A stretch of DNA of 64,000 bases from Aeromicrobium sp. (GTDB lineage Bacteria > Actinomycetota > Actinomycetes > Propionibacteriales > Nocardioidaceae): contig NZ_JAKFEL010000110.1 of the NCBI RefSeq assembly GCF_036675695.1, positions 839 through 64,838 of the forward strand, given 5' to 3'. The stretch's first letter is position 1; each line of letters begins with the position of its first letter. The position numbers were made by a program, and so were the translations under genes. This document shows, one piece after another, positions 1 through 57,083 of this stretch. Under the pieces are notes generated by a model that saw nothing but the letters and a program-made list of their open reading frames with translations, was not told where the DNA came from and did no database searches.

Positions 1-4
1 TGGC

Positions 5-556
5 GTGGGCGCTCTTGCGACCTCGAAGAGGCCCGCTGACCTGCAGATACGTCCGTTGATGGAGTACTACGCGACCCTCCGTCGTGAGGAATGGGACCTC
101 AGCGGTGAGCTTCGTATGCCGACCAGCGCGCTGCTGCCGATGGGCGGCGCTGTGTCAGGAGTGGCCGGACCCAACTGGATCCTGATCGGTGATGCCGCCG
201 GGTGCGTCAACCCGCTCAACGGCGAGGGCATCGACTACGGCATGGAGACCGGACGTGTGGGCGCCGAGCTCATGGCCGCTCAGATCGATCTCCAGGACGC
301 CTGGCCCGCGCTGCTCACGCACCATTACGGCGAGGCGTTCTCGATCGCCCGCCGTCTCGCCGGCCTGATCACCGTGCCGCGCCTCCTGCCGACCGCTGGC
401 CCGCTCGGCATGCGTTCGCACACGCTGATGACGTTCGCCCTGCGGGTGATGGGCAACTTCGTCACCGACGAAGACCACGACTTCACCGCACGCTTGTGGC
501 GCTGGGCCGGTCGCCAATCCGTACGCCTCGACGACCGACCACCTTTCACCTCATGA
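5..556 (+). CDS. Geranylgeranyl reductase family FAD oxidoreductase (MenJ-like), 5'-truncated by window edge
   Basis: LIGDAAGCVNPLNGEGIDYGMETG motif typical of the GG-reductase/FixC family; stop overlaps next start (ATGA at 553-556). Confidence 0.8.
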   Translation: MGALATSKRPADLQIRPLMEYYATLRREEWDLSGELRMPTSALLPMGGAVSGVAGPNWILIGDAAGCVNPLNGEGIDYGMETGRVGAELMAAQIDLQDAWPALLTHHYGEAFSIARRLAGLITVPRLLPTAGPLGMRSHTLMTFALRVMGNFVTDEDHDFTARLWRWAGRQSVRLDDRPPFTS

Positions 557-1128
557 CACGACCCCGGTATGACCTCGAGCTGCTGCTCGACGTCGCCATC
601 GAGGAGTTCACCAAGCGCGGCTACGACGGCACCAGCATCGAGCACCTCTCGGCCGCCACGGGCCTGTCCAAGTCATCGCTCTATCACCACGTCGAAGGCA
701 AGGAGCACATCCTGCGCCTCGGTCTCGAGCGTGCGGTCACTCCCCTGCTCAGCCTCCTCGACGAGCCGCAGGCACGCGAGGGCAAGGCGATCGACCGGCT
801 GACGTACGTGCTGCGTCGCCAGATCGCGATCCTCGCCGAACAACTTGCCGCGGTGACCTTGCTGCTGCGCGTACGCGGCAACACCGAGACCGAGCGCTGG
901 GCGCTCGAGCAACGACGTACGTTCGATGCCTTCGTGGCCGATCTCGTACGCGCTGGCGTGGCCGAAGGAGATCTCCGCGGAGATCTCGACCCCGCCGTTG
1001 TCGCCCGACTGCTCTCGGGCACGGTCAACTCGCTCACTGAGTGGTACCGCCCCGGTCACGGCTCCCTCAGCGCCGACGCTCTCGCCGACACGATGCTTTC
1101 GTCGAGCCTCGCCGGCCTCCGCGCGTAA
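553..1128 (+). CDS. TetR/AcrR family regulator (PaaR-like)
   Basis: N-terminal HTH AIEEFTKRGYDGTSIEHLSAATGLSKSSLYHHVEGKEHIL; lies directly upstream of the paa operon; ATG at 553. Confidence 0.85.
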   Translation: MTRPRYDLELLLDVAIEEFTKRGYDGTSIEHLSAATGLSKSSLYHHVEGKEHILRLGLERAVTPLLSLLDEPQAREGKAIDRLTYVLRRQIAILAEQLAAVTLLLRVRGNTETERWALEQRRTFDAFVADLVRAGVAEGDLRGDLDPAVVARLLSGTVNSLTEWYRPGHGSLSADALADTMLSSSLAGLRA

Positions 1129-1147
1129 GACACGCGAGTACTTCACC

Positions 1148-1289
1148 TCACGAGGTTTCGATACGTCGGCCGCGGGCGGCCTCCTACTCAACCACCGAAG
1201 TGGCGACGTTTCTCGGTGGTTGAGTAGCCTTGGGGGTCCCCCCAGCGAGCGCGGCGAGCGAGGGGGCGGGACGAGAGCGTATCGAAACC
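1148..1289. repeat. REP-like inverted doublet R1 (A unit reverse + long B unit forward)
   Basis: GGTTTCGATACG 1154-1165, CTACTCAACCACC 1184-1196, spacer, GGTGGTTGAGTAG 1215-1227, CGTATCGAAACC 1278-1289. Confidence 0.9.
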
Positions 1290-1344
1290 TGGTGAGCCGA
1301 CGAGCTTGCTGTACTTGATCTGGCCCTCCATCGGGGCGATGATG

Positions 1345-1368
1345 GAAACCGAACGATCATTCGGTTTC
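1345..1368. promoter_or_regulatory. Palindromic operator upstream of paaA, probable TetR/PaaR site
   Basis: GAAACCGAA-CGATCA-TTCGGTTTC, perfect 9-bp arms, 13 nt before the paaA start. Confidence 0.7.
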
Positions 1369-1381
1369 TGGAGGCGGTTCC

Positions 1382-2323
1382 GTGCAGGACACAGCAGAGC
1401 TCGGCGATCCTGAGTTCCTCGCACTGCTCGACCACGAAGGCCGCATCGAGCCGCGTGACGCGATGCCCGACGCGTACCGCAAGACCCTGATCCGCCAGAT
1501 CGCCCAGCACGCGCACTCGGAGATCATCGGCATGCAGCCGGAGGGCAACTGGATCACCCGCGCCCCGAGCCTGCACCGCAAGGCGATCCTGCTCGCCAAG
1601 GTGCAGGACGAAGCCGGTCACGGCCTCTACCTCTACGCCGCAGCCGAGACCCTCGGCATCGACCGTTCCGAGCTCCTCGATGCTCTGCACGAGGGCCGCC
1701 AGAAGTATTCCTCGATCTTCAACTACCCCACCAAGAGCTGGGCTGACATCGGAGCGATCGGTTGGCTGGTCGATGGTGCCGCGATCGTCAACCAGGTGCC
1801 GCTGTGCCGCTGCTCGTACGGGCCGTATGCGCGCGCGATGATCCGGATCTGCAAGGAGGAGTCGTTCCACCAGCGCCAGGGCTTCGATCTGCTCCTCACG
1901 CTCAGCAACGGCACTCCCGCACAGCACGCGATGGCGCAGGACGCCGTCGATCGCTGGTGGTGGCCGAGCCTGATGATGTTCGGCCCGCCCGACGCCGAGT
2001 CGCCCAACTCCGCGCGCTCCACTCGCTGGGGCATCAAGCGGTTCAGCAACGACGAGCTGCGTCAGCGGTTCGTCGACATCGCTGTGCCGCAGGCCGAGGC
2101 GCTCGGACTCACACTTCCCGACCCTGACCTGCGCTGGAACGCCGTGACCGAGCACTGGGGCTTCGGCGAGATCGACTTCTCCGAGCTGTACGACGTCATC
2201 GCCGGCAAGGGCTACTGCAACGACGAGCGCATGGAGCGCCGCACCACAGCGCACAACGACGGCGAATGGGTACGCGAGGCCGCCATGGCGTACGCCGCCA
2301 AGAAGGCCGAGGCAGCAGCATGA
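1382..2323 (+). CDS. paaA: Phenylacetyl-CoA epoxidase catalytic subunit A
   Basis: [52 protein letters not shown] di-iron motifs. Confidence 0.95.
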
Positions 2324-2601
2324 CCGCCTTGCCCCTCTGGGAAGTCTTCGTACGCCCCAAGCGCGGCGTCTCGCACGTACACGCCGGCAGCCTGCACGCG
2401 TCTGACGCCGAGAGCGCTCTGCGCAATGCTCGCGACGTCTACACCCGCCGCGGCGAAGGCGTGTCGATCTGGGTCGTTCCTGCCTCCGAGGTCACCGCCA
2501 GCAGCCCGGACGAGAAGGAAGCTTGGTTCGACCCCGCTGCCGACAAGATCTATCGCCACCCCACGTTCTATGACGTGCCCGATGGGGTTGAGCACCTGTG
2601 A
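2320..2601 (+). CDS. paaB: Phenylacetyl-CoA epoxidase subunit B
   Basis: [38 protein letters not shown]; ATGA overlap with paaA. Confidence 0.95.
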
Positions 2602-3254
2602 ACCTCACCCTCGAGCTCGCCGATGATGCGTTGATCCTGTCGCACCGCTGCAGCGAGTGGCTGACTCGTTCGCCCGAGATCGAACTCGACATCGCCTTCG
2701 GCAACATCGGTCTGGACCTGCTTGGTCAGGCTCGCAGCCTGTACGCGCTGGTTGGCGACGAGGACCGGCTTGCCTATCACCGCGATGCTCCCGAGTGGCG
2801 CAACTGCACACTCGTCGAGCTCCCCAACGGCGACTTCGCGTTCTCGATGATGCGACTGCTGGCCTTCGCGTCGTACGAGTGCGCGTTGTTCCGTACCGAT
2901 CCTGACACCGACGAGCTGCGGGCGATCTTCGCCAAGGCGGCCAAGGAGGCGGCCTACCACCTCGAGCACGCCGAGGCCTGGGTCCTTCGACTCGGCGATG
3001 GCACCGACGTCTCGCACGGTCGTATGCAGGATGCCGCAGACGCCGTGTGGCCGTTGCTGACCGAGCTCTGCTCGTCGGCGCCCGAGGTCGAAGCCGCCGT
3101 ACGCACGCAGCTCGCTGCGATCCTGACCGCTGCAACACTCACCGTGCCAACCGCGGCTGCCCCCACGCAGCGTGGCGAACACACCCCGCACCTGGCGGAG
3201 CTGCTCGGCGAGATGCAGTCGCTGGCCCGCGAGCATGAGGGCGCCACATGGTGA
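2598..3254 (+). CDS. paaC: Phenylacetyl-CoA epoxidase subunit C
   Basis: LADDALILSHRCSEW..PEIELDIAFGNIGLDLLGQAR; KEAAYH. Confidence 0.92.
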   Translation: MNLTLELADDALILSHRCSEWLTRSPEIELDIAFGNIGLDLLGQARSLYALVGDEDRLAYHRDAPEWRNCTLVELPNGDFAFSMMRLLAFASYECALFRTDPDTDELRAIFAKAAKEAAYHLEHAEAWVLRLGDGTDVSHGRMQDAADAVWPLLTELCSSAPEVEAAVRTQLAAILTAATLTVPTAAAPTQRGEHTPHLAELLGEMQSLAREHEGATW

Positions 3255-3712
3255 CCCTCGCCGACGCACGCACGCGGATCGAAGCCGTCGTCGATCCCGA
3301 GCTGCCGTTCGTGACCATCGCCGAGCTCGGAATCCTGCGCGACATCGCAGTCGACGGCGATCACGTCAACGTCACGATCACGCCGACCTACTCCGGCTGC
3401 CCGGCGATGTCGGCGATCGAAGAAGACATCCGCGCTGCGATGGACGGCATCGACGTCAGCGTCGAGACAGTCCTGTCCCCCGCCTGGACCACCGATTGGA
3501 TGACAACGGCGGGCAAGACCAAGCTCCACGCCGCCGGCATCGCCCCGCCCACGCATCACGCTGGCGCGATCCCGCTGACCCTGTCCGTGCGTTGCCCGCA
3601 GTGCGGATCGACGCGTACGAGCGAGATCTCGCGCTTTGGGTCCACCAGCTGCAAGGCGCTGTGGCGCTGCGACGACTGCCTCGAACCGTTCGACTCGTTC
3701 AAGGTGCTCTGA
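3251..3712 (+). CDS. paaD: Phenylacetyl-CoA epoxidase subunit D (older name PaaJ)
   Basis: DPELPFVTIAELGILR, TPTYSGCPAM, C-terminal CPQC...CKALWRCDDCLEPFDSFK. Confidence 0.92.
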   Translation: MTLADARTRIEAVVDPELPFVTIAELGILRDIAVDGDHVNVTITPTYSGCPAMSAIEEDIRAAMDGIDVSVETVLSPAWTTDWMTTAGKTKLHAAGIAPPTHHAGAIPLTLSVRCPQCGSTRTSEISRFGSTSCKALWRCDDCLEPFDSFKVL

Positions 3713-4752
3713 TGTTCCACGCCCTGCGCGTCGCCGCGATCGACGACCTCACCTCGGACTCTGTCGCCATCACCCTCGACGTTCCGGACGACCTCCAGGA
3801 CGAGTTCGCCTTCGAGCCCGGGCAGCACGTGATCATCGGGCTCGATGCCAAAGAGAATGTGGCTAGCGAGCGACGTACGTACTCGCTCTGCACCGCTCCC
3901 GGCTCCGGCCGCTGGCAGATCGGCGTCAAACGCCTACCCGGCGGCGCCTTCTCCGAGACCCGCCTGGCCACCCTGCAACCGGGCGACACGATCGACGTCA
4001 TGGCGCCGATCGGCTCGTTCGGCCCTCGCGCGCACGCCGAACATCTCGGACTCATCGCCGCCGGCAGCGGCGTCACCCCGATCCTGTCGATCGCGCGAGC
4101 GGCGCTTGCAGCCGACAGTGCTGTCACGCTTTTGTACGCGAGCCGCAACGAGCAGACGGTGATGTTCCTCGATGACCTCGCCGACCTCAAGGACAGCCAC
4201 CCCGACCGCTTCCACCTGATCCACGTGTTCAGTCGTCAGCAGACCGAGTCGGAACTGCTCTCAGGCCGGCTCGATGGCGACCGCCTCAAACGGATCCTCG
4301 GCCCGCTGGTCGACCCGGAAACCATCGATGACTGGTACCTCTGCGGTCCGTTCGACATGGTCACCGAGCTCTCATCGACGCTCGAGGCTGCCGGAGCGAG
4401 CAGCGTGCACCGCGAGCTGTTTCACGTCGACGACGCTCCCCCACCTCCGCGCCCGGCGGAAGCGTTCGTCGATGGCGGGCCCGCCGTCACGGCAACACTC
4501 GATGGCCGCACCAGCACCTACACGCTGACGCCGGAGGACGACTCGGTCCTGGCCGGGCTGTTGCGCGTACGGCCTGAGGCGCCCTTTGCCTGCCGCGGCG
4601 GCGTCTGCGGCACCTGCCGGGCCAAGGTTCTGGACGGAGCCGTCGAGATGCGACACAACTACGCGCTGGAGCCCGACGAGCTCGAAGCTGGCTATGTGCT
4701 CACTTGCCAGAGCTGGCCAACTACGCCAGACGTGACACTGTCGTACGAATAG
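3712..4752 (+). CDS. paaE: Phenylacetyl-CoA epoxidase reductase subunit E (FAD/NAD + 2Fe-2S)
   Basis: RTYSLC, AAGSGVTP, YLCGP, C-terminal ACRGGVCGTC...LTCQ ferredoxin motif; starts at ATG 3712. Confidence 0.92.
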   Translation: MFHALRVAAIDDLTSDSVAITLDVPDDLQDEFAFEPGQHVIIGLDAKENVASERRTYSLCTAPGSGRWQIGVKRLPGGAFSETRLATLQPGDTIDVMAPIGSFGPRAHAEHLGLIAAGSGVTPILSIARAALAADSAVTLLYASRNEQTVMFLDDLADLKDSHPDRFHLIHVFSRQQTESELLSGRLDGDRLKRILGPLVDPETIDDWYLCGPFDMVTELSSTLEAAGASSVHRELFHVDDAPPPPRPAEAFVDGGPAVTATLDGRTSTYTLTPEDDSVLAGLLRVRPEAPFACRGGVCGTCRAKVLDGAVEMRHNYALEPDELEAGYVLTCQSWPTTPDVTLSYE

Positions 4753-4761
4753 CCGCGCATG

Positions 4762-4791
4762 CGGAAGGCCCGGCCGAAGCCGGGCCTTCCG
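4762..4791. terminator. Hairpin between convergent paaE and membrane-protein gene
   Basis: CGGAAGGCCCGGC-CGAA-GCCGGGCCTTCCG, 13-bp perfect stem. Confidence 0.75.
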
Positions 4792-4805
4792 TCAATGCTG
4801 AGTGG

Positions 4806-5279
4806 TCACGCCGCAGGCGGAGTGTCCTTCTTGTTGAGGTCAGGCATCTTCTCGCCCGAAGCCTTGAACAGAGCGACGGATGCCACTGAAAGGACGACCG
4901 CCGAAATTACTGTGACAAATCCGGACCAACCGGGGTCAAGGTCGACACCAAACTTCGACGCCGTAAACAAACGAAGTACTAACAGCAGAGTTCCAAGGAC
5001 GGCCGCCGCCGCTCCTACGAGGTTCCATGGCACCCCATCGGGCAGAGTCGCCGGCGCCAGCAACCTTACGACTACGACAGCGATGGCCACCACGATCAAC
5101 AGCATTGCCAGAAAGCCGATCCCGCCCCACGCACTCTCGCCGTACACTGTGTCGCCCGAAAAACCAGGGACTCCTTCGACTGACAGAGATACAAACCGAC
5201 TGATGAACGAGAAGACCAGTGTGACTCCACCAGAAATCAGCGCCGCCTGTTCAAATTTGCCCAAAGACTTGAAGTCCAT
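4806..5279 (-). CDS. Hypothetical 4-TM membrane protein
   Basis: ORF from MDFKSLGKFEQ with four hydrophobic segments. Confidence 0.7.
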   Translation of the reverse strand: MDFKSLGKFEQAALISGGVTLVFSFISRFVSLSVEGVPGFSGDTVYGESAWGGIGFLAMLLIVVAIAVVVVRLLAPATLPDGVPWNLVGAAAAVLGTLLLVLRLFTASKFGVDLDPGWSGFVTVISAVVLSVASVALFKASGEKMPDLNKKDTPPAA

Positions 5280-5426
5280 GTGAATCCTTCTCCCAACGAT
5301 GAAGTTCTGACACTTCGAATCTAGTCCTCCAAAGCGGCTGCGGACAGTCATTTCATGCGGTATTTACGTGGCGCGTCGCTGATACCGCATGTTGATACGT
5401 GCACGGAGTAGGACAGAATCTCGGGC

Positions 5427-7079
5427 ATGGACGCAGATGTGATCGTTGTCGGGGCCGGCCTTGCCGGATTGGTTGCCACCGCGGAGCTCGTCGAAGCCGG
5501 TCGCAAGGTGATTCTGGTCGACCAGGAAGGCGAGCAGGGCATCGGCGGACAGGCATTTTGGTCGTTCGGTGGGCTGTTCTTCGTCGACTCCCCACAGCAG
5601 CGCCGTATGGGCATCAAGGACTCCGTCGAGCTCGCCATGCAGGACTGGATGGGCAGCGCCCAGTTCGACCGCGACGAGGACAAATGGCCCCGCCAGTGGG
5701 CCGAGGCGTACGTCAACTTCGCTGCCGGCGAAAAGCGTTCCTGGCTCAAGGAGCGCGGCCACAGCGTGTTTCCCGTTGTCGGCTGGGCCGAGCGCGGCGG
5801 CGGTCTCGCCGGTGGGCACGGCAACTCCGTCCCCCGCTTCCACATCACCTGGGGCACCGGCCCCGGCATCGTCGAGCCGTTCGAGAAGATCGTGCGTGAG
5901 GGCCACGCAAAGGGACTTGTCCAGTTCGCGTTCCGCCACCAGGTCGACGAGCTGATCGTCAGCGGCGGAGCCGTCACAGGAGTTCGGGGTCAGGTGCTCG
6001 AGCCGGACGATGCTGAGCGCGCAGCGCCGACATCCCGAACGTCAATCGGCGAGTTCACGATGACCGCCCAGGCCGTGATCGTCACGTCCGGCGGTATCGG
6101 CGGCAACCACGAGCTCGTACGCAAGAACTGGCCCGACCGACTCGGCACCCCGCCGATGCACATGATCTCCGGCGTACCCGCGCACGTCGACGGCCGCATG
6201 CTCGGCATCGCCGAGAAGGCCGGCGCGAGCCACATCAACCGCGACCGTATGTGGCACTACGTCGAAGGCATCAAGAACTGGGACCCGATCTGGCCCATGC
6301 ACGGCATTCGCATCCTGCCCGGGCCGTCGTCCATCTGGCTCGACGGCGCTGGCCAGCGCCTACCGATCCCCGGTCTGCCCGGCTTCGACACCCTTGGCAC
6401 CCTAAAGCTGCTGCGCCAGAGTGGTCACGACCACTCGTGGTTCGTGCTCAGCCAGGCGATCATCGAGAAGGAGTTCGCCCTGTCCGGTCAGGAGCAGAAC
6501 CCCGACCTGACTGGCAAGAGCGTCAAGACGCTGCTCAAGGAGCGGCTCTCCAAGGGCGCGACGAGCCCCGTCGAGGCGTTCAAGGAGAAGGGCGAGGACT
6601 TCATCGTCGCCGACACGATCGAAGAGCTCGTCGCTGGCATGAACACGTTGACGCCCGACTCCCCCGTCGACGTCGACGACGTACGCCGCCAGGTCACCGA
6701 ACGTGACCGCGAGCTCGACAACGACTTCACGAAGGACCTGCAGATCGCCGCAATGCGTCAGGCCCGGGCCTACCGCGGCGACAAGCTGATCCGGGTCGCG
6801 ACCCCGCACAAGATCCTCGATCCCAAGAAGGGGCCGCTGATCGCCGTACGCCTGCACGTACTCACTCGCAAGTCGCTCGGCGGACTCGAGACCAACCTCG
6901 ACTCTGCCGTGATCGGCACGGATGGCTCACCTGTCGACGGCCTGTACGCCGCAGGCGAAGTTGCCGGCTTCGGTGGGGGTGGTGTGCACGGCTACAACTC
7001 GCTGGAGGGCACGTTCCTCGGCGGTTGTATCTTCAGCGGCCGCGCAGCAGGTCGAGCCGCCGCCAAGCAAACCGCCTAG
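5427..7079 (+). CDS. FAD-binding dehydrogenase (KsdD/fumarate reductase flavoprotein-like)
   Basis: VIVVGAGLAGLVA Rossmann start, LTRKSLGGLETN, GLYAAGEVAGFGGGG..GYNSLEGTFLGGC. Confidence 0.85.
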   Translation: MDADVIVVGAGLAGLVATAELVEAGRKVILVDQEGEQGIGGQAFWSFGGLFFVDSPQQRRMGIKDSVELAMQDWMGSAQFDRDEDKWPRQWAEAYVNFAAGEKRSWLKERGHSVFPVVGWAERGGGLAGGHGNSVPRFHITWGTGPGIVEPFEKIVREGHAKGLVQFAFRHQVDELIVSGGAVTGVRGQVLEPDDAERAAPTSRTSIGEFTMTAQAVIVTSGGIGGNHELVRKNWPDRLGTPPMHMISGVPAHVDGRMLGIAEKAGASHINRDRMWHYVEGIKNWDPIWPMHGIRILPGPSSIWLDGAGQRLPIPGLPGFDTLGTLKLLRQSGHDHSWFVLSQAIIEKEFALSGQEQNPDLTGKSVKTLLKERLSKGATSPVEAFKEKGEDFIVADTIEELVAGMNTLTPDSPVDVDDVRRQVTERDRELDNDFTKDLQIAAMRQARAYRGDKLIRVATPHKILDPKKGPLIAVRLHVLTRKSLGGLETNLDSAVIGTDGSPVDGLYAAGEVAGFGGGGVHGYNSLEGTFLGGCIFSGRAAGRAAAKQTA

Positions 7080-9505
7080 GAAATCGCGGCGGTGAACTGC
7101 TCGGCGGGCACGGCACGGCTGTAGCGGAAGCCCTGCGCCTGGTCGCACCCTTTGGCGCGCAGGTAGATCTCCTGCTCCGCGGTCTCGACACCCTCAGCCA
7201 CCACGGTCATGCCGAGTGTGTGCGCCATGACGATGATCGTGTCGACAATCGCTGCGTCGGCCGAGTTGTCCACCAGATCAGCGATGAACGAGCGGTCGAT
7301 CTTGATCTTGTCGATCGGAAATCGGGTCAGATAGGCGAGGCTCGAGAAGCCCGTACCGAAGTCATCGATGGCGATCGCGACCCCAAGCGCGCGGACAGTG
7401 TTCAACACTTCGACCACCGTGCGCGGATCCTCCATGAAGATGCCCTCGGTGATCTCCAGCTCAAGCTGGTTGCCCGACAGGCCCGACTCCCACAGTGCCC
7501 GTTCGAGCACCGCGAGCCATTCCTTGTCCCTGAGCTGACGCGGCGACACATTGACGGCCAGCCGCATCGGACGGCCGAGTGACTTGGAGATCCGCATGGT
7601 GTCTGCGCACGCCGTACGCAGGATGTGCTCGCCCAGGCGAATGATCAGTCCGTTGTCCTCGGCGACGGGAATGAAGCGATCCGGCGGGATGTCCATACCG
7701 TCGGCGTCCTCCCATCGGGCCAACGCCTCCAGTCCCACGACCTCACCGGTCGCGAGGTGTATTTCGGGCTGATATGCCACGGTGATCTCACCGCGATCCA
7801 GAGCGTGGCGAAGAGAGGCCGCGAGCACGAGCTTGTCATTGGTCTCGTCGAGCATGGAGTCGTGGAACCACTGGAATGAGTTACGGGCCGCCGTCTTCGC
7901 GTGATACATCGCGGTGTCCGCGTGCTTGAGCAACGTTGTGGAGTCCGCACCATTCTGAGGGAACAGCGAGCCACCCAGGCTCCCGGTGACGATGAGCTCA
8001 TGGCCGTTGCAAATCAGCGGTTCGGGGATCAGCTCAAGCAAGGCTGTGATCCGTTCTGACAGCTCGTCTGCTGAATGCACATCGGTGAAGACGAGCACGA
8101 ACTCATCGCCTCCGAATCGGGACACGAGGTCGCTTGCTCTGACCTCGCTGCGCAAGCGAGCCGCCATTTGCAACAGGAGCTCGTCGCCGATGTGGTGTCC
8201 CAGGGAATCGTTGACCCGCTTGAAGTGGTCCAAATCGAGCATGATGACGGCAAGGCCGGTGTTCAGGCGTGCCGCACGTTCGAGCTCGGCGTCGAGCCGA
8301 GTGAACAGCATCGTGCGGTTGGGCAGATCGGTCAGGAAGTCGTAGTGCGCCATGTGCCGAATGAACGCCTCGGCTTCCCTGCGCTGCGTGATGTCATACG
8401 CGACTGCGAGGTATCCCGTGACTTGCTCGACTTCGTCGACAATCAGCGAGATCGCCTCATTGACGGGTACGTCGACCCCGTCCTTGCGGTGGTACTCGAC
8501 CTCGCGCTCGTCAACTCCGTCGGTATGAGCTGCACGCGAGAGCATCTGATCCAGCCGGCCATCGCGAATGTTGTCGATGCGCGAGCCAACAAGCTCGTTG
8601 CGTTCTGCGCGAAGCAGGCGTTCGGCTGCCGGGTTGGCCGTGACGATGACGCCGTCAGGGTCGGTCGCAATGATGCTGAACGGCAGGCTGTCGAGAATCG
8701 ACCGCCGCAGGCGATCAGCACGTTCGGCACTCTCGGTGGCTTGTACGACGAGCCGCTCGGTGATGTCGATGACCGAGGCCAGGACGTGTTGTTCATCCAG
8801 CACCTGGATGGGGTTGAGGCCGATCTCGACAGGGATCTCGCTGCCGTCCTTGCGTCGGCCGAACAACTCACGACCGGCACCCATCTCTCGCCGGTCCGGT
8901 TGCCGGAAGTAACCCATGCGATAGCCATCGTGCTTGGCCTTGAAGCGAGTGGGGATGAGGTCTTCGATGTTCATGCTGAGCAACTCGTCGCGTGAGTAGC
9001 CGAACGATCTCTCGGTCTGCGTGTTGACCAGCACGATGTGTCCGAGAGAGTTGACCATGATCATGGCGTTGGGGGCTGCCTCGACGACGTGCAACAGGCG
9101 CTCTTCTGCGCGCTTGCGCTCGGTGATGTCGATGATCGACGCCAGCACCTGCGGCCGGCCGTCAATGATCACCGGATTGAGCCCGATCTCGATCGGGAAC
9201 TCTCGCCCATGCCTGTGCAGGCCGAAGAGGTCACGCCCCGCGCCCATCGCGCGCGTGTCGGGGTGCTCAAAGAACCCTTCACGAAATCCCTTGTGCCGCG
9301 GACGGAACCGCTCAGGGATCAGCCGATCGACGGTCATGGAGAGCAGTTCTTCGCGGCTGTAGCCAAACTGTTGCTCGGTCTGCGTGTTGACGAGCGTGAT
9401 CCGGCCCAACTCGTTGACCATGACCATCGCATTGGGCGTTGCCTCAATGATCTGTCGCAGCACACGACTTTCGTCGTCGCCGCCCGGCAAATGCGTTTCT
9501 CCCAT
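7076..9505 (-). CDS. PAS-PAS-PAS-GGDEF-EAL diguanylate cyclase/phosphodiesterase
   Basis: Repeated PAS units (RKDG..P), HYDFLTDLPNR, RFGGDEF, GLEALARW, IDDFGTGFSSL. Confidence 0.93.
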   Translation of the reverse strand: MGETHLPGGDDESRVLRQIIEATPNAMVMVNELGRITLVNTQTEQQFGYSREELLSMTVDRLIPERFRPRHKGFREGFFEHPDTRAMGAGRDLFGLHRHGREFPIEIGLNPVIIDGRPQVLASIIDITERKRAEERLLHVVEAAPNAMIMVNSLGHIVLVNTQTERSFGYSRDELLSMNIEDLIPTRFKAKHDGYRMGYFRQPDRREMGAGRELFGRRKDGSEIPVEIGLNPIQVLDEQHVLASVIDITERLVVQATESAERADRLRRSILDSLPFSIIATDPDGVIVTANPAAERLLRAERNELVGSRIDNIRDGRLDQMLSRAAHTDGVDEREVEYHRKDGVDVPVNEAISLIVDEVEQVTGYLAVAYDITQRREAEAFIRHMAHYDFLTDLPNRTMLFTRLDAELERAARLNTGLAVIMLDLDHFKRVNDSLGHHIGDELLLQMAARLRSEVRASDLVSRFGGDEFVLVFTDVHSADELSERITALLELIPEPLICNGHELIVTGSLGGSLFPQNGADSTTLLKHADTAMYHAKTAARNSFQWFHDSMLDETNDKLVLAASLRHALDRGEITVAYQPEIHLATGEVVGLEALARWEDADGMDIPPDRFIPVAEDNGLIIRLGEHILRTACADTMRISKSLGRPMRLAVNVSPRQLRDKEWLAVLERALWESGLSGNQLELEITEGIFMEDPRTVVEVLNTVRALGVAIAIDDFGTGFSSLAYLTRFPIDKIKIDRSFIADLVDNSADAAIVDTIIVMAHTLGMTVVAEGVETAEQEIYLRAKGCDQAQGFRYSRAVPAEQFTAAIS

Positions 9506-9578
9506 GCAAACCCTCCCTCGGGCCGAACATAACGTCTTGCAGGGCCATTCGCGGCCGATCAGCCGCTAGATTCAGGCC

Positions 9579-9971
9579 ATGACCGCTCTAGCATTAGTCG
9601 CCGCCAGCATCGCTGCTCTGCTGCATCTCCTGTTCTTCAAGCTGGAGTCGATCGACTGGAAGAAACCAAAGACGTGGAAGACATTCGGCCTCGAGTCTCA
9701 GGCTGACGCCGACACCACGGCTTCGCTCGCGTACAACCAGGGCTTTTACAACCTGTTCCTGGCAATCGGTGCGGCGACGGGCGTCAAGCTCATCGCGTTC
9801 TCCGACAGCTATGACACCGTCGCCTGGACGCTCATCGTGTTCGCGTGCGGCAGCATGTTCGCCGCCTCCCTGGTGCTGCTGTCGACCGGCAAGTCGTATG
9901 CCCGCGCCGCCGCAATCCAGGGCGTACCAGCACTCGTTGCGGTCGTCGCAGCCCTCGTTGCTGCGAACTAG
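9579..9971 (+). CDS. DUF1304-like membrane protein
   Basis: LHLLFFKLES...AYNQGFYNLFLA...AAAIQG pattern, hydrophobic helices. Confidence 0.75.
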   Translation: MTALALVAASIAALLHLLFFKLESIDWKKPKTWKTFGLESQADADTTASLAYNQGFYNLFLAIGAATGVKLIAFSDSYDTVAWTLIVFACGSMFAASLVLLSTGKSYARAAAIQGVPALVAVVAALVAAN

Positions 9972-16036: not shown

Positions 16037-16124
16037 GGGTTTCGATACGCTCGTTCCTCGCTACTCAACCACCTGGTGGTTGAGTAGCGAGGCCGCCCGC
16101 GGCCGACGTATCGAAACCTCGTGA
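16037..16124. repeat. REP-like inverted doublet R2 (B reverse + A forward)
   Basis: GGGTTTCGATACG-CTCGTTCCTCG-CTACTCAACCACC-T-GGTGGTTGAGTAG-CGAGGCCGCCCGCGGCCGA-CGTATCGAAACC-TCGTGA. Confidence 0.92.
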
Positions 16125-18777: not shown

Positions 18778-18862
18778 TCACCCAGGTTGGTGGTTGAGTG
18801 ACATGCGGGAATGTTCGTTTGGCCGGGTTTGTTGAATTGGTTGTAGTCAACGAAAGGCAGTC

Positions 18863-19249
18863 ATGAGCACCATCAACCTGACCAAGGACAGCATCGACGA
18901 GGCCGTCTCCGCCGACGGGATCACGTTGGTCGACTGGTGGGCTTCCTGGTGTGGCCCGTGCATGAAGTTCGGCCCCGTCTACGAAGCCGCGAGCGAGCAG
19001 CACCCCGATGTCGTGTTCGCCAAGATCGACACCGAGGCCGAAGGTGAGCTCTCAGGCGCAGCTGGCATCTCCTCGATCCCGACGCTGATGGCATTCCGCG
19101 ACGGCATTCTGGTGTTCTCACAGCCCGGCGCACTCCCGGCTGCGGGCCTCGAGCAGGTCATTCAGGCGGTCAAGGGGCTCGACATGGACGACGTACGTCG
19201 CCAGGTCGCCGAAGCCGAAGCGGCTGAGGCAGCCCAGGCGGAGGTCTGA
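18863..19249 (+). CDS. Thioredoxin
   Basis: WASWCGPC active site, SIPTL. Confidence 0.92.
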   Translation: MSTINLTKDSIDEAVSADGITLVDWWASWCGPCMKFGPVYEAASEQHPDVVFAKIDTEAEGELSGAAGISSIPTLMAFRDGILVFSQPGALPAAGLEQVIQAVKGLDMDDVRRQVAEAEAAEAAQAEV

Positions 19250-20371
19250 CTACTTCAGGGCGTCGAGCACTGCGCCGGTGAAGCTGTTGGGTGAGATCAC
19301 GGTCTGATCCGTCGGCATGGTTCCCATGCGTACGGCCACGACGCCCTTGGACGGCACGACCGAGATGATCTGCTTGCCGAAGCCGAGCGCCCAATAGGCG
19401 TCATCGGGCGCCCGCGGGGCAAGCTGGCCGACGTACGCGTTCTCATCGTTGGTCGAGCCCGTCGCGGTCAACGCGCCGAGTACCGTCCCGGACCGGTTGA
19501 CCCACCACAGCAACCCATACGCGGCGTTGAGCTCGGTGGACGACTTGCCGGTCGCCTCGCCGAGGTAGGTCTCAGAGACGATCCGCTTGCCGTTCCACTC
19601 GCCCCCGCGCATCGTCATGAGGCCGAATCGCGCAAGGTCGAGGCAGGTCGACGAGATGCCCGCGTACGTCGACGTGTGCAGCGATCGATCAGGGATCCAC
19701 GTGGTGTTGGACATGCCGAGCGGACCGAACAGGTGTGTTGCCGCATACGCAGCCGGCTCCTGCCCGGTCGCCGCCCTCAGCACCGCAGCGAGGGTTTGGA
19801 TCGCTGAGTTGTTGTAGTGCCAGACGTTGCCGGGTTCGGCGTCTTGCTTGAGCCCGACGGCGAAGGCAGTCTTGTCGACGGCGCGGGCTGCCATACCGAT
19901 GTAGTCGGTCTCGAAGTCCCAGTGACGACCTGAGTCGTTGGACAGCAGGTTGCGGATCGTGACGTCTTCGGACGGCGTGCCGATCCATTCGGGGATGTAC
20001 TTCGATGCCTTGTCGTCGAGCGACAACTTGCCCTGGTCTTGGGCGATGCCGACGAGAACTGACGTGAACGACTTGGTCACCGAGAACACCGGCTTCTTGG
20101 TGTCGGCCTTGGATCCGCGCCAGTACTTCTCATGCACGAGCTTGCCGTCGCGGGTCACGACCTCACAGTTCGAGCGGTTGCCGGCGAGCAGCCGGTCGAG
20201 CTTCCTCAGCCCCGAGCGCTCGAATCCAGCCCCATCAGGATCGATGGTGTCCCACTGCTCTCCCGGATCCACGGTCGCCGTCGGAACCGGCTTGGGTGCC
20301 GGCGCGTCACCCGAGCAGCCACTGAACAGTGCCATCGCGGCGATGACCGCCACAGCGGCGCGGAACGTCAT
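19250..20371 (-). CDS. Lipoprotein serine hydrolase, beta-lactamase/PBP-like family (copy 1)
   Basis: FSGC lipobox, SVTK (SxxK), YNN (YxN), LDDKASKYIPEW. Confidence 0.85.
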   Translation of the reverse strand: MTFRAAVAVIAAMALFSGCSGDAPAPKPVPTATVDPGEQWDTIDPDGAGFERSGLRKLDRLLAGNRSNCEVVTRDGKLVHEKYWRGSKADTKKPVFSVTKSFTSVLVGIAQDQGKLSLDDKASKYIPEWIGTPSEDVTIRNLLSNDSGRHWDFETDYIGMAARAVDKTAFAVGLKQDAEPGNVWHYNNSAIQTLAAVLRAATGQEPAAYAATHLFGPLGMSNTTWIPDRSLHTSTYAGISSTCLDLARFGLMTMRGGEWNGKRIVSETYLGEATGKSSTELNAAYGLLWWVNRSGTVLGALTATGSTNDENAYVGQLAPRAPDDAYWALGFGKQIISVVPSKGVVAVRMGTMPTDQTVISPNSFTGAVLDALK

Positions 20372-20449
20372 AGTTCATTGTCGCTTGAGGGGCGGTCACG
20401 GCGGCCCGCTCAACAGGAGAAGTCTGCCAATCCGGCATACCGTTGGTCG

Positions 20450-25058: not shown

Positions 25059-25330
25059 TCTCGCTGGTTGAGTAGGAGGCCGCCCGCGGCCGACGTATCG
25101 AAACCACGCAACACAACAGGCTCGCTCAAGCATCTCGACTCACCAGGTTTCGATACGCCCTCGTCCCCAGGGCTACTCAACCACCGAGATGCCACCGTCT
25201 CGCTGGTTGAGTAGGAGGCCGCCCGCGGCCGACGTATCGAAACCAAGCAACACAACCGGCTCGCTCAAGCATCTCGACTCACCAGGTTTCGATACGCCCT
25301 CGTCCCCCAGGGCTACTCAACCTCCGAGAT
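25059..25330. repeat. REP-like array R3: four alternating units, a 139-bp tandem duplication
   Basis: A-fwd, 40-nt linker, B-rev, linker, A-fwd, linker, B-rev; TCTCGCTGGTTGAGTAG starts at 25059 and at 25198. Confidence 0.92.
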
Positions 25331-27372: not shown

Positions 27373-27421
27373 GCTGGTTGAGTAGGAGGCCGCCCGCGGC
27401 CGACGTATCGAAACCCCGTGA
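27373..27421. repeat. REP-like single A unit R4
   Basis: GCTGGTTGAGTAG-GAGGCCGCCCGCGGCCGA-CGTATCGAAACC-CCGTGA. Confidence 0.9.
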
Positions 27422-52175: not shown

Positions 52176-52667
52176 TCAAGTCTTGTGTTGCTGTGCTGTC
52201 TCTTCGGCAAGCTCACCGTCGGCCGTGGCCGACATGATGCTGGCGATCTCGGCGGCAAAGTCATCTGCTGACTCGAACGCCTTGTAGACGCTCGCGAATC
52301 GCAGGTAGGCGACCTCGTCGAGGCTCTTGAGCGGTTCGAGGATGGCGAGGCCGACTTCGTGGGCCGGCACCTCAGCACATCCCGAATCGCGGAGGGTGTC
52401 CTCGACCTGCTGGCCGAGTCGTGCCAAGTCGTCATCGGAAACCGGTCGGCCCTTGCAGGCCTTGCGGACACCGGCGATCGCCTTGTCGCGGAGGAAGGGC
52501 TCAGTCGCACCTGAACGCTTGACCACGGTGAGCTGCATTTGCTCGATCGTGGTGAAGCGCTTGTTGCAGTCGGAGCACATACGACGGCGGCGGATGGCTC
52601 CACCTTCGTCGGCGACACGGCTGTCCAGGACTTTGGTGTCGGTGTTCTTGCAGAACGGACAATGCAT
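52176..52667 (-). CDS. nrdR: Transcriptional repressor NrdR
   Basis: MHCPFC...VLDSR...IRRRRMC..C..RFTT zinc ribbon, ATP cone, AYLRFASVY. Confidence 0.96.
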
Positions 52668-52800
52668 CGCGTGCTCCTTCCCTCATACCAAAGGGCTGTC
52701 AATGGACTTCTGAGTCTTGAAGTGCTCCCGATGTGGGGAGAACCTGTGGAAACCGTGTGGATTCCGAGCTGTTTCGGTGTGTAACCCGTCCGAACCTGTG

Positions 52801-52848
52801 GAACTAGATGTGGACGAACAACAACGGTGTAACTACTAGATGTAGTGC
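52801..52848. promoter_or_regulatory. Tandem NrdR boxes
   Basis: Cores CTAGATGTGG (52804-13) and CTAGATGTAG (52836-45), 32 bp apart, resembling the NrdR-box consensus and spacing. Confidence 0.75.
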
Positions 52849-52990
52849 CACTGTACGCCGCAGGTGTGGCCCACGCAACACAATTGCAGTAGGCGCCCAC
52901 AGTTTTTCTGGGGTTCCCTGAAACCGCAGGTCAAAGCCAATTTGAGCGGCGAAATTGCGGCGTGTCGGATGCTCAATCGAGCCCTCCGAC

Positions 52991-53174
52991 TCACGGGGTT
53001 TCGATACGTCAGCCGCGGGCGGCCTCCTACTCAACCACCGGTGGTTGAGTAGCGAGGAACCAGCCCGTATCGAAACCTCATGAGGTCACTCCGCGACGCG
53101 CTTTCGAGATGGTGGCATGGACTCGGTGGTTGAGTAGCCGCGAGGAACGAGTGGCGTATCGAAACCTCGTGAGG
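52991..53174. repeat. REP-like doublet (A rev + B fwd) plus single B unit, upstream of GIY-YIG gene
   Basis: Doublet 52991-53085 with zero-spacer centre ACCACCGGTGGT; single unit 53125-53174. Confidence 0.92.
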
Positions 53175-53240
53175 TCGAAGGCTCGCTCGACTGTGGATGG
53201 CCGAGTCGCTTCGATCACCGAGCTCATCCATGCTCGCCCG

Positions 53241-53543
53241 ATGATGGGCGGGTACATGTACATCCTGAGGTGCTCTGACGACAGTTACTACGTCGGCAGC
53301 ACCATCAACATCCTCTTTCGCATGCAACAGCACCAAGACGGCGAGGGCGCTGCGTACACGAAACGACGCTTGCCCGTTGAACTCGTCTACTGCCTGCCTT
53401 GTGAGTGGATCGTCCAGGCGTTCTGGTTCGAGAAGCGCGTCCAAGGATGGTCCAGGGCAAAGCGCAAAGCGCTCATCAGCGGCGACCTGCATCTTCTGCC
53501 CGAGCTGGCGAAGAAGAAGTTCCCCAAGCGAGTTGCAGAGTGA
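53241..53543 (+). CDS. Small GIY-YIG nuclease (UPF0213/YhbQ-like)
   Basis: GYMYILRCSDDSYYVGST, conserved Arg/His (RMQQH), FEK..QGWSRAKRKALI; -10-like CATGCT 6 nt before ATG 53241. Confidence 0.88.
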   Translation: MMGGYMYILRCSDDSYYVGSTINILFRMQQHQDGEGAAYTKRRLPVELVYCLPCEWIVQAFWFEKRVQGWSRAKRKALISGDLHLLPELAKKKFPKRVAE

Positions 53544-53544
53544 C

Positions 53545-53640
53545 CTCACGAGGTTTCGATACGTCGGCCGCGGGCGGCCTCCTACTCAACCACCGGTGGT
53601 TGAGTAGCCGCGAGGAACGAGCGGCGTATCGAAACCTCGC
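53545..53640. repeat. REP-like doublet (A rev + B fwd) immediately after the GIY-YIG stop
   Basis: CTCACGAGGTTTCGATACG...CTACTCAACCACCGGTGGTTGAGTAG...CGTATCGAAACC, starting 2 nt after TGA. Confidence 0.92.
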
Positions 53641-53651
53641 GGTGCGGATGG

Positions 53652-54203
53652 TTAGCCGGGTGGGCGGGAGTCGGCTGTGGCGTTGGGGCAGAGCACCTCG
53701 CGCGGAGATCCTGAGTGGATCTGCTCAGGCAGGGCGATGACGACCGTGCGCTTCACGAAGGCGCTGCTGGTGCGCAGGTGCACATCCTTGACGAAGCTGC
53801 CTGCGCGAGACGACAGTCGCTCGCACGCCGTCATGAACAGCGACAGCGTGACCAGCCGGCGGTCCCCCGCACCGACCGTGAACTCTGACTTGTCGCCGGA
53901 CTTGAGCGACTTGTAGTCGAACAGCGTCGGCTTCACCTTGGGCTGCGCAATGCCCTCGACCTTGATCGGCAGCAAACCGTCGTTGACCAGCTCGAACGTG
54001 TAGGTGAGCGTCTTGCGGTCGGCATACCGGATCTGGCGGATCGTGTCCTCGCCGATGTCGAACACCGCCGAGGCTTCAGTCCCCTTGACGCTTGTCGGAC
54101 CGGCAGCAGTGAGCGAGGGAGAGAACCCCGCGTACGCCGGGGCAGCTCCCAGAACCAGCGCCCCGGCGACGAGACCCCCTGCGATGACCTTGCGAGAAGG
54201 CAA
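53652..54203 (-). CDS. Hypothetical secreted protein
   Basis: Signal peptide ending AYA; 2 nt from the upstream beta-helix gene, so probably co-transcribed. Confidence 0.7.
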   Translation of the reverse strand: MPSRKVIAGGLVAGALVLGAAPAYAGFSPSLTAAGPTSVKGTEASAVFDIGEDTIRQIRYADRKTLTYTFELVNDGLLPIKVEGIAQPKVKPTLFDYKSLKSGDKSEFTVGAGDRRLVTLSLFMTACERLSSRAGSFVKDVHLRTSSAFVKRTVVIALPEQIHSGSPREVLCPNATADSRPPG

Positions 54204-57034: not shown

Positions 57035-57083
57035 GGTGGTTGAGTAGGAGGCCGCCCGCGGCCGACGTATCGAAACCTCGTGA
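57035..57083. repeat. REP-like single A unit R6
   Basis: GGTGGTTGAGTAG-GAGGCCGCCCGCGGCCGA-CGTATCGAAACC-TCGTGA. Confidence 0.9.

Follow-up and report, generated by a model that had tools for sequence, protein, structure and literature searches.

We analysed a window of 64,000 nucleotides (64 kb), i.e., positions 839 to 64,838 of contig NZ_JAKFEL010000110.1 from an Aeromicrobium species, with a focus on the gene of a small GIY-YIG nuclease (53241-53543, forward strand) and the family of palindromic repeat units among which it lies. Gene and repeat are associated far beyond the window: homologues of the gene are flanked by units of the same type of fold in several phyla, and among relatives the gene is present or absent and changes its genomic context. 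With a probability of about 0.62, we read the protein as a single-domain endonuclease whose cognate substrate would be the repeat unit folded as single-stranded DNA, while the gene and its two inverted terminal units would form one cassette.

A protein search returned 1168 relatives, and a scan of one genome per species with the family alignment provided 80 loci with 10-kb flanks, which are the basis of the following counts. Within 600 bp of the gene, we find 171 units of the strict pattern in 91.6 kb (1.87/kb) compared to 40 in 1169 kb elsewhere (0.034/kb), i.e., an enrichment of about 55-fold. A strict unit is located within this distance in 42/80 loci and on both sides of the gene in 35/80. 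When the pattern is relaxed to a generic core, i.e., any 4-bp complementary stem around GAG...TCGA, 78/80 loci show a match within 400 bp (68/80 on both sides), while 30% of the control windows contain one. The density of this core is 5.6/kb within 400 bp of the gene versus 0.51/kb at distances above 2 kb. For many loci, the pair that flanks the gene represents the only units within 20 kb.

The initial annotation of the window had suggested asking whether homologues are flanked by such units more often than other genes, and the answer is strongly positive. It had also cautioned that YhbQ-type genes are common and that repeats can collect in any gap, such that an ordinary gene might have ended up among abundant repeats by chance. 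Repeats are indeed frequent in the window, where they occupy seven intergenic sites. The enrichment across 80 loci from several phyla shows, however, that the association is not due to chance, and we consider this explanation already refuted. The genes that are flanked by units where no other unit is found within 20 kb contradict it as well, and so does the true housekeeping relative yhbQ of E. coli, which has no room for flanking repeats.

Loci without the strict pattern show variants of the same architecture (GGTTGAGGAG...CGTCTCGAAACC or GGTCGAGGTG...), and low-GC hosts use minimal forms such as GGTGGTTGAGCCTGTCGAAACC, in which the inserted hairpin is missing. In a Treponema locus (L037), 27-bp inverted repeats are placed 15 nt 5' of the start and 8 nt 3' of the stop codon, which results in a cassette of about 355 bp. 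The hosts belong to Actinomycetota, Chloroflexota, Spirochaetota, Bacteroidota, the Gammaproteobacteria (Alkanindiges), and the Alphaproteobacteria (Sphingomonas and Methylobacterium, on plasmids or secondary replicons). Judged from sequence, the partnership of gene and repeat recurs in about six phyla. A comparison of nuclease phylogeny and repeat variants, also suggested by the initial annotation, reveals that the variants follow the protein tree and not the host genus: within Nocardioides, loci L012 and L063 carry GAG..CGTC while L018, L020, and L075 carry TAG..CGTA, and two paralogues of Protaetiibacter mangrovi have slightly different unit variants.

The gene is the sole GIY-YIG copy in the window and encodes 100 amino acids, with the stop codon included in the coordinates. 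Its product has the GIY-YIG domain PF01541 as its only Pfam match (E=6.7e-13), i.e., it is a single-domain protein without a second domain, and no NCBIfam family matched it. All residues that are invariant in the family alignment are present (Y7, Y17, R27, H31, E64), such that both the predicted gene of about 100 codons and its intact catalytic-type Tyr, Arg, and Glu positions are confirmed. The nearest named homologues in the protein search are from Aeromicrobium, and the G+C content of the window is 63.5%. The region in front of the gene (53167-53240, +) comprises the left tail (tcgtgaggtcgaaggctcgctcgac), a conserved CTGTGGATGG, and the hexamer CATGCT (53229-53234), and may represent a leaderless promoter region; a motif CTGTGGA(T/C) upstream of the gene is conserved in L001, L002, L003, L006, and L065. 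The hexamer had been described as -10-like. It is indeed located 6 nt 5' of the ATG and kept in relatives, but a scan with the sigma-70 consensus gave no match in this region, so that a promoter at CATGCT is a candidate we infer and no more. A scan for promoters and terminators around the gene provided no matches either.

The window contains exactly 15 units at its seven sites, all of them intergenic. Each unit is composed of GGTGGTTGAGTAG, a variable GC-rich hairpin, and CGTATCGAAACC. The 5' box matches 18 times (0.82 expected) and the 3' box 21 times (3.8 expected); partial box matches at 18789 and 60346 are not units. Five units surround the gene (52997-53636), namely two (-)(+) doublets (52997-53077 and 53552-53636) and one single (+) unit (53125-53166). 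In both doublets the centre is seamless, i.e., CTACTCAACCACC is followed by GGTGGTTGAGTAG with 0 nt between the arms. Thus, we recover the counts and layout that had been reported (5 of 15 units within 650 bp, both doublets A-reverse/B-forward). The reported unit was correct in sequence and layout but too short in extent: most units in this genome have an additional conserved tail of about 30 nt (tcGTGAGyCGAnnGGCTCGnTnGAGC), therefore the repeated element is longer than described. GC skew in the window was uninformative with regard to strand bias.

Two of the five units would be the ends of the cassette. The left terminal unit (53125-53166, +) has the P2 hairpin CCGC-gaggaacga-GTGG, and a (+) unit is typically also the nearest upstream neighbour in actinobacterial homologue loci. 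The right terminal unit (53544-53594, -) has a conserved extension (cctcacga) that begins immediately after the TGA stop; in many homologue loci, a (-) unit is found 7-30 nt past the stop codon. It stands head-to-head with the unit at 53595-53636 (+), together with which it forms the second doublet. In the upstream doublet, the left half is located at 52997-53039 (-), while the unit with tail at 53040-53103 (+) is a remnant of an inverted right cassette end: between its tail and the final 18 nt of the gene, taken together with the right-end extension, the complementarity is 89% (53066-53103 versus 53526-53563).

Close relatives differ in where, and whether, they carry the gene. In the window and in the relative L001 (97% protein identity), it is located beside nrdR; in Aeromicrobium stalagmiti its neighbours are Band_7 and Mce genes, and in a third lineage acyltransferase and glycosyltransferase genes. 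Units flank it in each case. Furthermore, soil run X4 provides a contig of 920 nt in which position 53023 is directly followed by 53649, with about 97% identity to the left and right of this junction; it lacks the gene as well as nearly all units, and a truncated form of the unit at 52997-53039 is all that is left. That is, an empty site exists in a relative, which the initial annotation had named as something to look for, and conserved synteny without repeats is not what homologues show: units are always flanking in the three contexts. In run X5, the doublet at 16 kb (16038-16118) is missing from a related strain, tails included (150 nt). Between the window and L001, the gene, the left unit, and its tail are 97-99% identical, while in L001 the unit 53040-53103 is absent, the downstream units are wholly different (among them those in place of 53595-53636), and the right terminal unit has another P2. 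The gene is single copy whereas the repeats are numerous: the read depth in run X1 is 24.7 for the gene, about 30 for its flanks, and 524 for the repeat bin, and among the 80 loci listed only the genome of Protaetiibacter mangrovi occurs twice. No target-site duplication is evident at the ends of minimal cassettes; all that we find there is that the inverted repeat continues for another 6-10 nt.

The context changes and the empty site show that unit, gene, and inverted unit come and go together. They would make up a single cassette that also relocates as such, in line with the mobile-cassette option that had been raised before. The dispersed single units, doublets, and arrays would be non-autonomous derivatives of the cassette ends, as suggested by the shared tails and the inverted-end remnant. 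The comparison with L001 points to a fast turnover of dispersed units by recombination between copies.

The same observations can be related to a selfish cassette of the homing-endonuclease type. Here, the repeats would pre-exist, spread by something else, and serve as target or landing site, where the nuclease would cut and its gene would be copied in by repair via repeat homology. Such a process would explain that the gene lies between units in every context, that it is present or absent at one identical site, that an inverted right-end fragment adjoins it, and that units of the 97%-identical relatives look gene-converted and not point-mutated. We nevertheless consider it unlikely. At many loci the flanking pair is the only one in 20 kb, so dispersed targets are no precondition, the gene is single copy, and the protein shows no homing-type DNA-binding domain. 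The unit variants co-vary with the protein clade, but this fits cognate recognition under either model.

The unit is predicted to be a structured hairpin in which two stems, P1 (GGTY/RACC) and P2, covary around a core of tandem G.A pairs and a bulged G. P1 would pair the conserved boxes GGTYGAG and TCGARACC with each other. Inside P1, a tandem G.A/A.G, one G-C pair, and the bulged G would follow, and P2, a hairpin of free sequence and length, would be inserted in the middle of the unit. The conserved 5' flank of the units, which reads yCGnT, would stay single-stranded just 5' of the fold. While both boxes are constant, the distance between them ranges from 4 to more than 50 nt; a protein that reads both boxes on duplex DNA would hardly tolerate this, a stem that joins the boxes would.

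We assessed covariation for 220 distinct units by comparing observed with shuffled pairing. Position 4 of P1 is C-G in 117 and T-A in 100 units with 3 exceptions, compared to 75% paired after shuffling, and at position 2 we count G-C 206 times and A-T 13 times. P2 is closed by T-A (189) or G-C (29) with 2 exceptions, and the first P2 pair, for which four pair types are used, is formed in 88% of the units versus 48% after shuffling. The third-last position of the inter-box segment is a G in 220/220 units and would be bulged in this pairing scheme. The constancy of the tandem G.A/A.G that adjoins P1 is not independent evidence, since it is part of the GAG and TCGA boxes used for unit finding. 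Unguided RNAalifold predictions for 38 units result in P1 and the inner stem, with compensatory changes in 5/9 pairs. Compared by eye with the hammerhead, twister, pistol, and kink-turn patterns, the unit fits none. A variant, GGTYGAG-GTGCGA(stem)GAGCC-TCGARACC, is observed at three loci (L018 at about 17490, L066 at about 5404, L081 at 8842-9642); it has a second tandem G.A by the inner stem and resembles a kink-turn-like module.

Covarying stems around an invariant core of tandem G.A and bulged G are typical of RNA motifs. One may thus ask whether the units are structured RNAs, i.e., regulatory elements or small RNAs, which the protein binds or cuts. This is very improbable given that units face either way with respect to the genes next to them and form inverted pairs at the two ends of the nuclease gene, and that GIY-YIG enzymes are, from what is known of the superfamily, DNases. 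In addition, no Rfam family matched the whole window at gathering thresholds, and matches for 52900-53700 at E<=10 are chance matches only. The nuclease SsnA, which is introduced below, does not bind RNA (PMC11893778).

In Neisseria meningitidis, SsnA consists of a single GIY-YIG domain (94 aa) and belongs to the CDD family cd10448 (PMC11893778). It binds and cuts the hairpin repeat that flanks its gene (NTS) as single-stranded DNA only, on one strand only and upstream of the hairpin, and it modulates transformation by NTS-bearing DNA (PMC11893778). NTS-like motifs (SRM) flank 71% of SsnA homologues and are found in hundreds of dispersed copies (PMC11893778), and the layout NTS-ssnA-NTS was likened by its authors to insertion sequences and to the repetitive extragenic palindromic (REP) elements with their REP-associated tyrosine transposases (RAYT) (Chenal et al., Nat Commun 2025, PMC11893778). 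Given these findings, the central idea of the initial annotation, i.e., a RAYT-analogous system of nuclease and repeat, is supported by the association but is not new: it is a published kind of system. We found no follow-up to that study in the literature, and a search on GIY-YIG together with REP, REPIN, RAYT, miniature inverted-repeat elements (MITE), YhbQ, UPF0213, or COG2827 gave nothing else of relevance.

For SsnA, it was proposed that the nuclease restricts or processes single-stranded DNA that bears the repeats, either incoming or as repair intermediates. A domesticated host function of this kind, with repeats kept as marks, is in line with the effect of SsnA on transformation (PMC11893778), with a single-copy gene that has an intact active site, and with the exclusively intergenic location of the units in the window. 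It is hard to reconcile with a gene whose position differs between related species and which is missing from a close strain. Also, many genomes have units beside the gene only, which hardly fits genome-wide marking. We thus regard a domesticated host function as distinctly improbable.

We favour a mobile cassette that encodes a nuclease for its own folded ends. In this model, the protein would bind the fold on the one strand that presents it and cut nearby, either within the conserved 5' flank or close to it, in the manner of SsnA. It would act only on single-stranded DNA, e.g., during replication, repair, or DNA uptake; such a specificity of cleavage is inferred by analogy to SsnA. That the nuclease causes the spread of the repeats is speculative, here as well as for Ssn, since GIY-YIG enzymes are DNases that hydrolyse DNA and do not join it. 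To our knowledge, no ligation or strand-transfer activity has been described for these enzymes.

Several points weigh against our interpretation. First, given that lack of joining chemistry, dissemination needs host recombination or another enzyme. Second, an activity of this clade is deduced from the analogy to SsnA, which may not transfer. As proxies of SsnA, we used four metagenomic GIY-YIG open reading frames that adjoin exact NTS repeats (L092, L112, L131, L175); in two cases (L092, L112), SRM-matching repeats stand to the left and right of the frame. The identity of the proxies to the window protein is 27-29%, with E-values from 2e-6 to 5e-4, whereas the published sequence criterion for Ssn is a top CDD match to cd10448 or a BLASTP E<1e-10 at >=75% coverage against N. 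meningitidis SsnA (PMC11893778). Judged by these proxies, the window protein probably falls short of it. The proxies are as distant as the repeat-free E. coli YhbQ; with the family profile, YhbQ scores 50 bits and the NTS-type proxies 32-49 bits. A second protein search shows no Neisseria entry among the best 120. Third, the published SRM expression (HGTCWY N0-2 YYVSBRH N0-5 WNVSBRG N0-2 RNCYNB; PMC11893778) matched none of the units, neither those of the window nor those of the 80 loci, and gave only isolated matches away from the genes, while the same expression finds 109/120 control loci with an exact NTS core. Fourth, tandem G.A motifs are also compatible with an RNA fold. Finally, 37 viral or proviral contigs of IMG/VR (L208-L244) carry one or two exact-type units (GGTTGAGTAG...CGTATCGAAACC), and a search of IMG/VR found no homologue of the gene; the units therefore travel or persist without it.

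The remaining units of the window are dispersed. The unit at 1154-1196 (-) forms a head-to-head doublet with an 18-nt spacer together with 1215-1289 (+), which has a long P2 insert of 50 nt. Comparable inserts of 50-70 nt with a common sequence (GGGGGT.CC.CCC...GGGGGCGGGACGAG) are found in different species (L005 at about 7094, L015 at about 9555), which suggests a conserved extra module inside the hairpin of this subclass. A second doublet is composed of 16038-16073 (-) and 16075-16118 (+). Four units, 25063-25105 (+), 25146-25185 (-), 25202-25244 (+), and 25285-25325 (-), are arranged in two tandem (+)/(-) tail-to-tail pairs of 139 nt. Single intergenic units are located at 27373-27415 (+), where the unit's own flanks form an outer stem in the fold, and at 57035-57077 (+). 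In the assembly of the relative L003, a run of N (9840-9939) lies inside the repeat array upstream of the gene, and many homologues are located on contigs of about 1 kb, which equals the median of the collection; repeats may break short-read assemblies.

Further observations concern the neighbourhood of the gene and the related strains. On a plasmid of Sphingomonas parapaucimobilis (L086, 882-1821), a GIY-YIG homologue is located directly beside nrdR as in the window (52176-53543), which could be a coincidence or a preferred landing site. Upstream of the window's nrdR (52176-52667, -), two copies of GAACCTGTGGAA are found 52 nt apart along with two ACTAGATGT-type motifs (52740-52850); these may be NrdR boxes or other regulatory sites of the nrdR-nrdJ operon. 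Beyond nrdJ, L001 carries a defence island (1-5907) with GmrSD, an N6-methyltransferase/Eco57I-type enzyme, and an HNH protein, which is not at that place in the window. In the region 19247-20407, 1159 nt are missing from contigs of the soil runs X4 and X6, for X6 with a filler AGGCCCCT; the open reading frame at 19250-20371 (-), which encodes 373 aa, is therefore absent from related strains.

If our reading holds, the pairing of a small GIY-YIG nuclease with a genome-wide hairpin repeat would extend to Actinomycetota, Chloroflexota, and other phyla. The protein clade would be another one, and the element it recognizes would be richer in structure. It would provide a candidate enzyme for an unexplained repeat class that appears to include the common TGAG...TCGAA repeats of Alphaproteobacteria and Bacteroidota, and a testable function for UPF0213, a large family that includes E. 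coli YhbQ and B. subtilis YazA. Each pair of protein and unit may provide a new enzyme that cuts single-stranded DNA with specificity for sequence and structure; the published Ssn work shows demand for such enzymes. More tentatively, and at somewhat short of even odds, the UPF0213-like clade and a universal TGAG...TCGAA fold could constitute a second family of nucleases specific for hairpins in single-stranded DNA, which would be present in six or more phyla and beyond the Ssn survey of 2025. Ssn, UPF0213, and the clade studied here would then perhaps share a hairpin-repeat-nuclease ancestry, which is possible since the clade is about equally far from Ssn-type proteins and UPF0213 (YhbQ, YazA). 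With such an ancestry, YhbQ and YazA would have arisen from cassettes of this kind by domestication. The cassette of low-GC hosts, at about 355 bp, would in this view rank among the smallest known mobile units that carry a gene.

Among known systems, REP/REPIN-RAYT shares the single-copy gene between inverted copies of a palindromic repeat and the occurrence of this repeat elsewhere as singles, head-to-head doublets, and clusters. In both, the repeat is a hairpin, here a predicted one, in single-stranded DNA with an unpaired tag, and co-evolves with the enzyme. In contrast, the flanked gene encodes a GIY-YIG hydrolase instead of an HUH Y1 transposase (PF01797), therefore neither a covalent intermediate nor strand transfer is expected. 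Also, the GTAG tag is not conserved: GAGTAG of the window is replaced by GAGGAG, GAGTGC, or GAGGTG in relatives, and its T pairs with an A across the predicted fold. The CGTC- and GTAG-tagged REP superfamilies (Di Nocera et al. 2013, PMC3733652) are likewise short tagged palindromes that mostly form head-to-head dimers, and the CGTC-tagged class had no known enzyme until Ssn was described. The window unit fits neither class, since it has boxes on both sides of the hairpin and predicted internal non-Watson-Crick elements; the terms 'Actinobacteria' and 'TCGAA' are absent from the main text of PMC3733652.

IS200/IS605 elements with their TnpA and miniature inverted-repeat elements resemble our system, as we read it, in that ends are recognized as imperfect single-stranded hairpins and that short non-autonomous end derivatives are dispersed. 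The whole low-GC cassette of L037, only about 355 bp long, is composed of a terminal inverted repeat, an open reading frame, and a second inverted repeat. Differences are the location of the window's hairpins on opposite strands at the two ends, the single-copy gene, the lack of a detected target-site duplication, and the chemistry. More generally, a single-copy gene without a transposase of strand-transfer chemistry is not an insertion sequence or autonomous transposon, and a single domain of 100 aa differs from GIY-YIG homing endonucleases, which combine the nuclease with a separate DNA-binding domain and a unique double-stranded site.

With regard to UPF0213, the closest solved structures in the profile search are from this family (1zg2, i.e., BH0048, E=1.6e-22; 1ywl, i.e., EF2693, E=8e-17), which also includes the closest relatives with a protein name, and the motif pattern G.GA.YT..R.PV.LVY is common to both. 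The window protein is 29% identical to E. coli YhbQ (E=2e-12) and about 35% to B. subtilis YazA. The genes differ in their surroundings: E. coli yhbQ overlaps yhbS, is 50 bp from yhbP, and has no flanking repeats, while the window clade is mobile and repeat-flanked. That is, the window gene, whose neighbours change between relatives, is not a housekeeping gene in a fixed repeat-free neighbourhood.

The last comparison is with Ssn. Both systems comprise a GIY-YIG protein that has one domain, a length of about 90-100 aa, and an intact set of catalytic residues, inverted hairpin repeats 5' and 3' of the gene in the order repeat(+)-gene-repeat(-), as in the NTS loci L092 and L112, and further dispersed copies of the flanking repeat in the genome. 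Both are widespread across phyla, and both repeats are oriented by a conserved unpaired 5' flank, which for our units is predicted. NTS, however, is a plain hairpin of 8-9 bp with a CGTC tag, whereas the window unit is a two-box fold (GGTYGAG...TCGARACC) for which a GA/GA core and a bulged G are predicted and into which a hairpin can be inserted. The hosts found here are mainly Actinomycetota and Chloroflexota and not Pseudomonadati. Next to Ssn and UPF0213, the clade looks like a third group. New are the divergent protein clade, a repeat architecture beyond the published motif, and phyla that are not discussed in the main text of PMC11893778. By analogy, the window clade is best read as a sister clade whose nucleases would be specific for hairpins in single-stranded DNA and which has a repeat class of its own.

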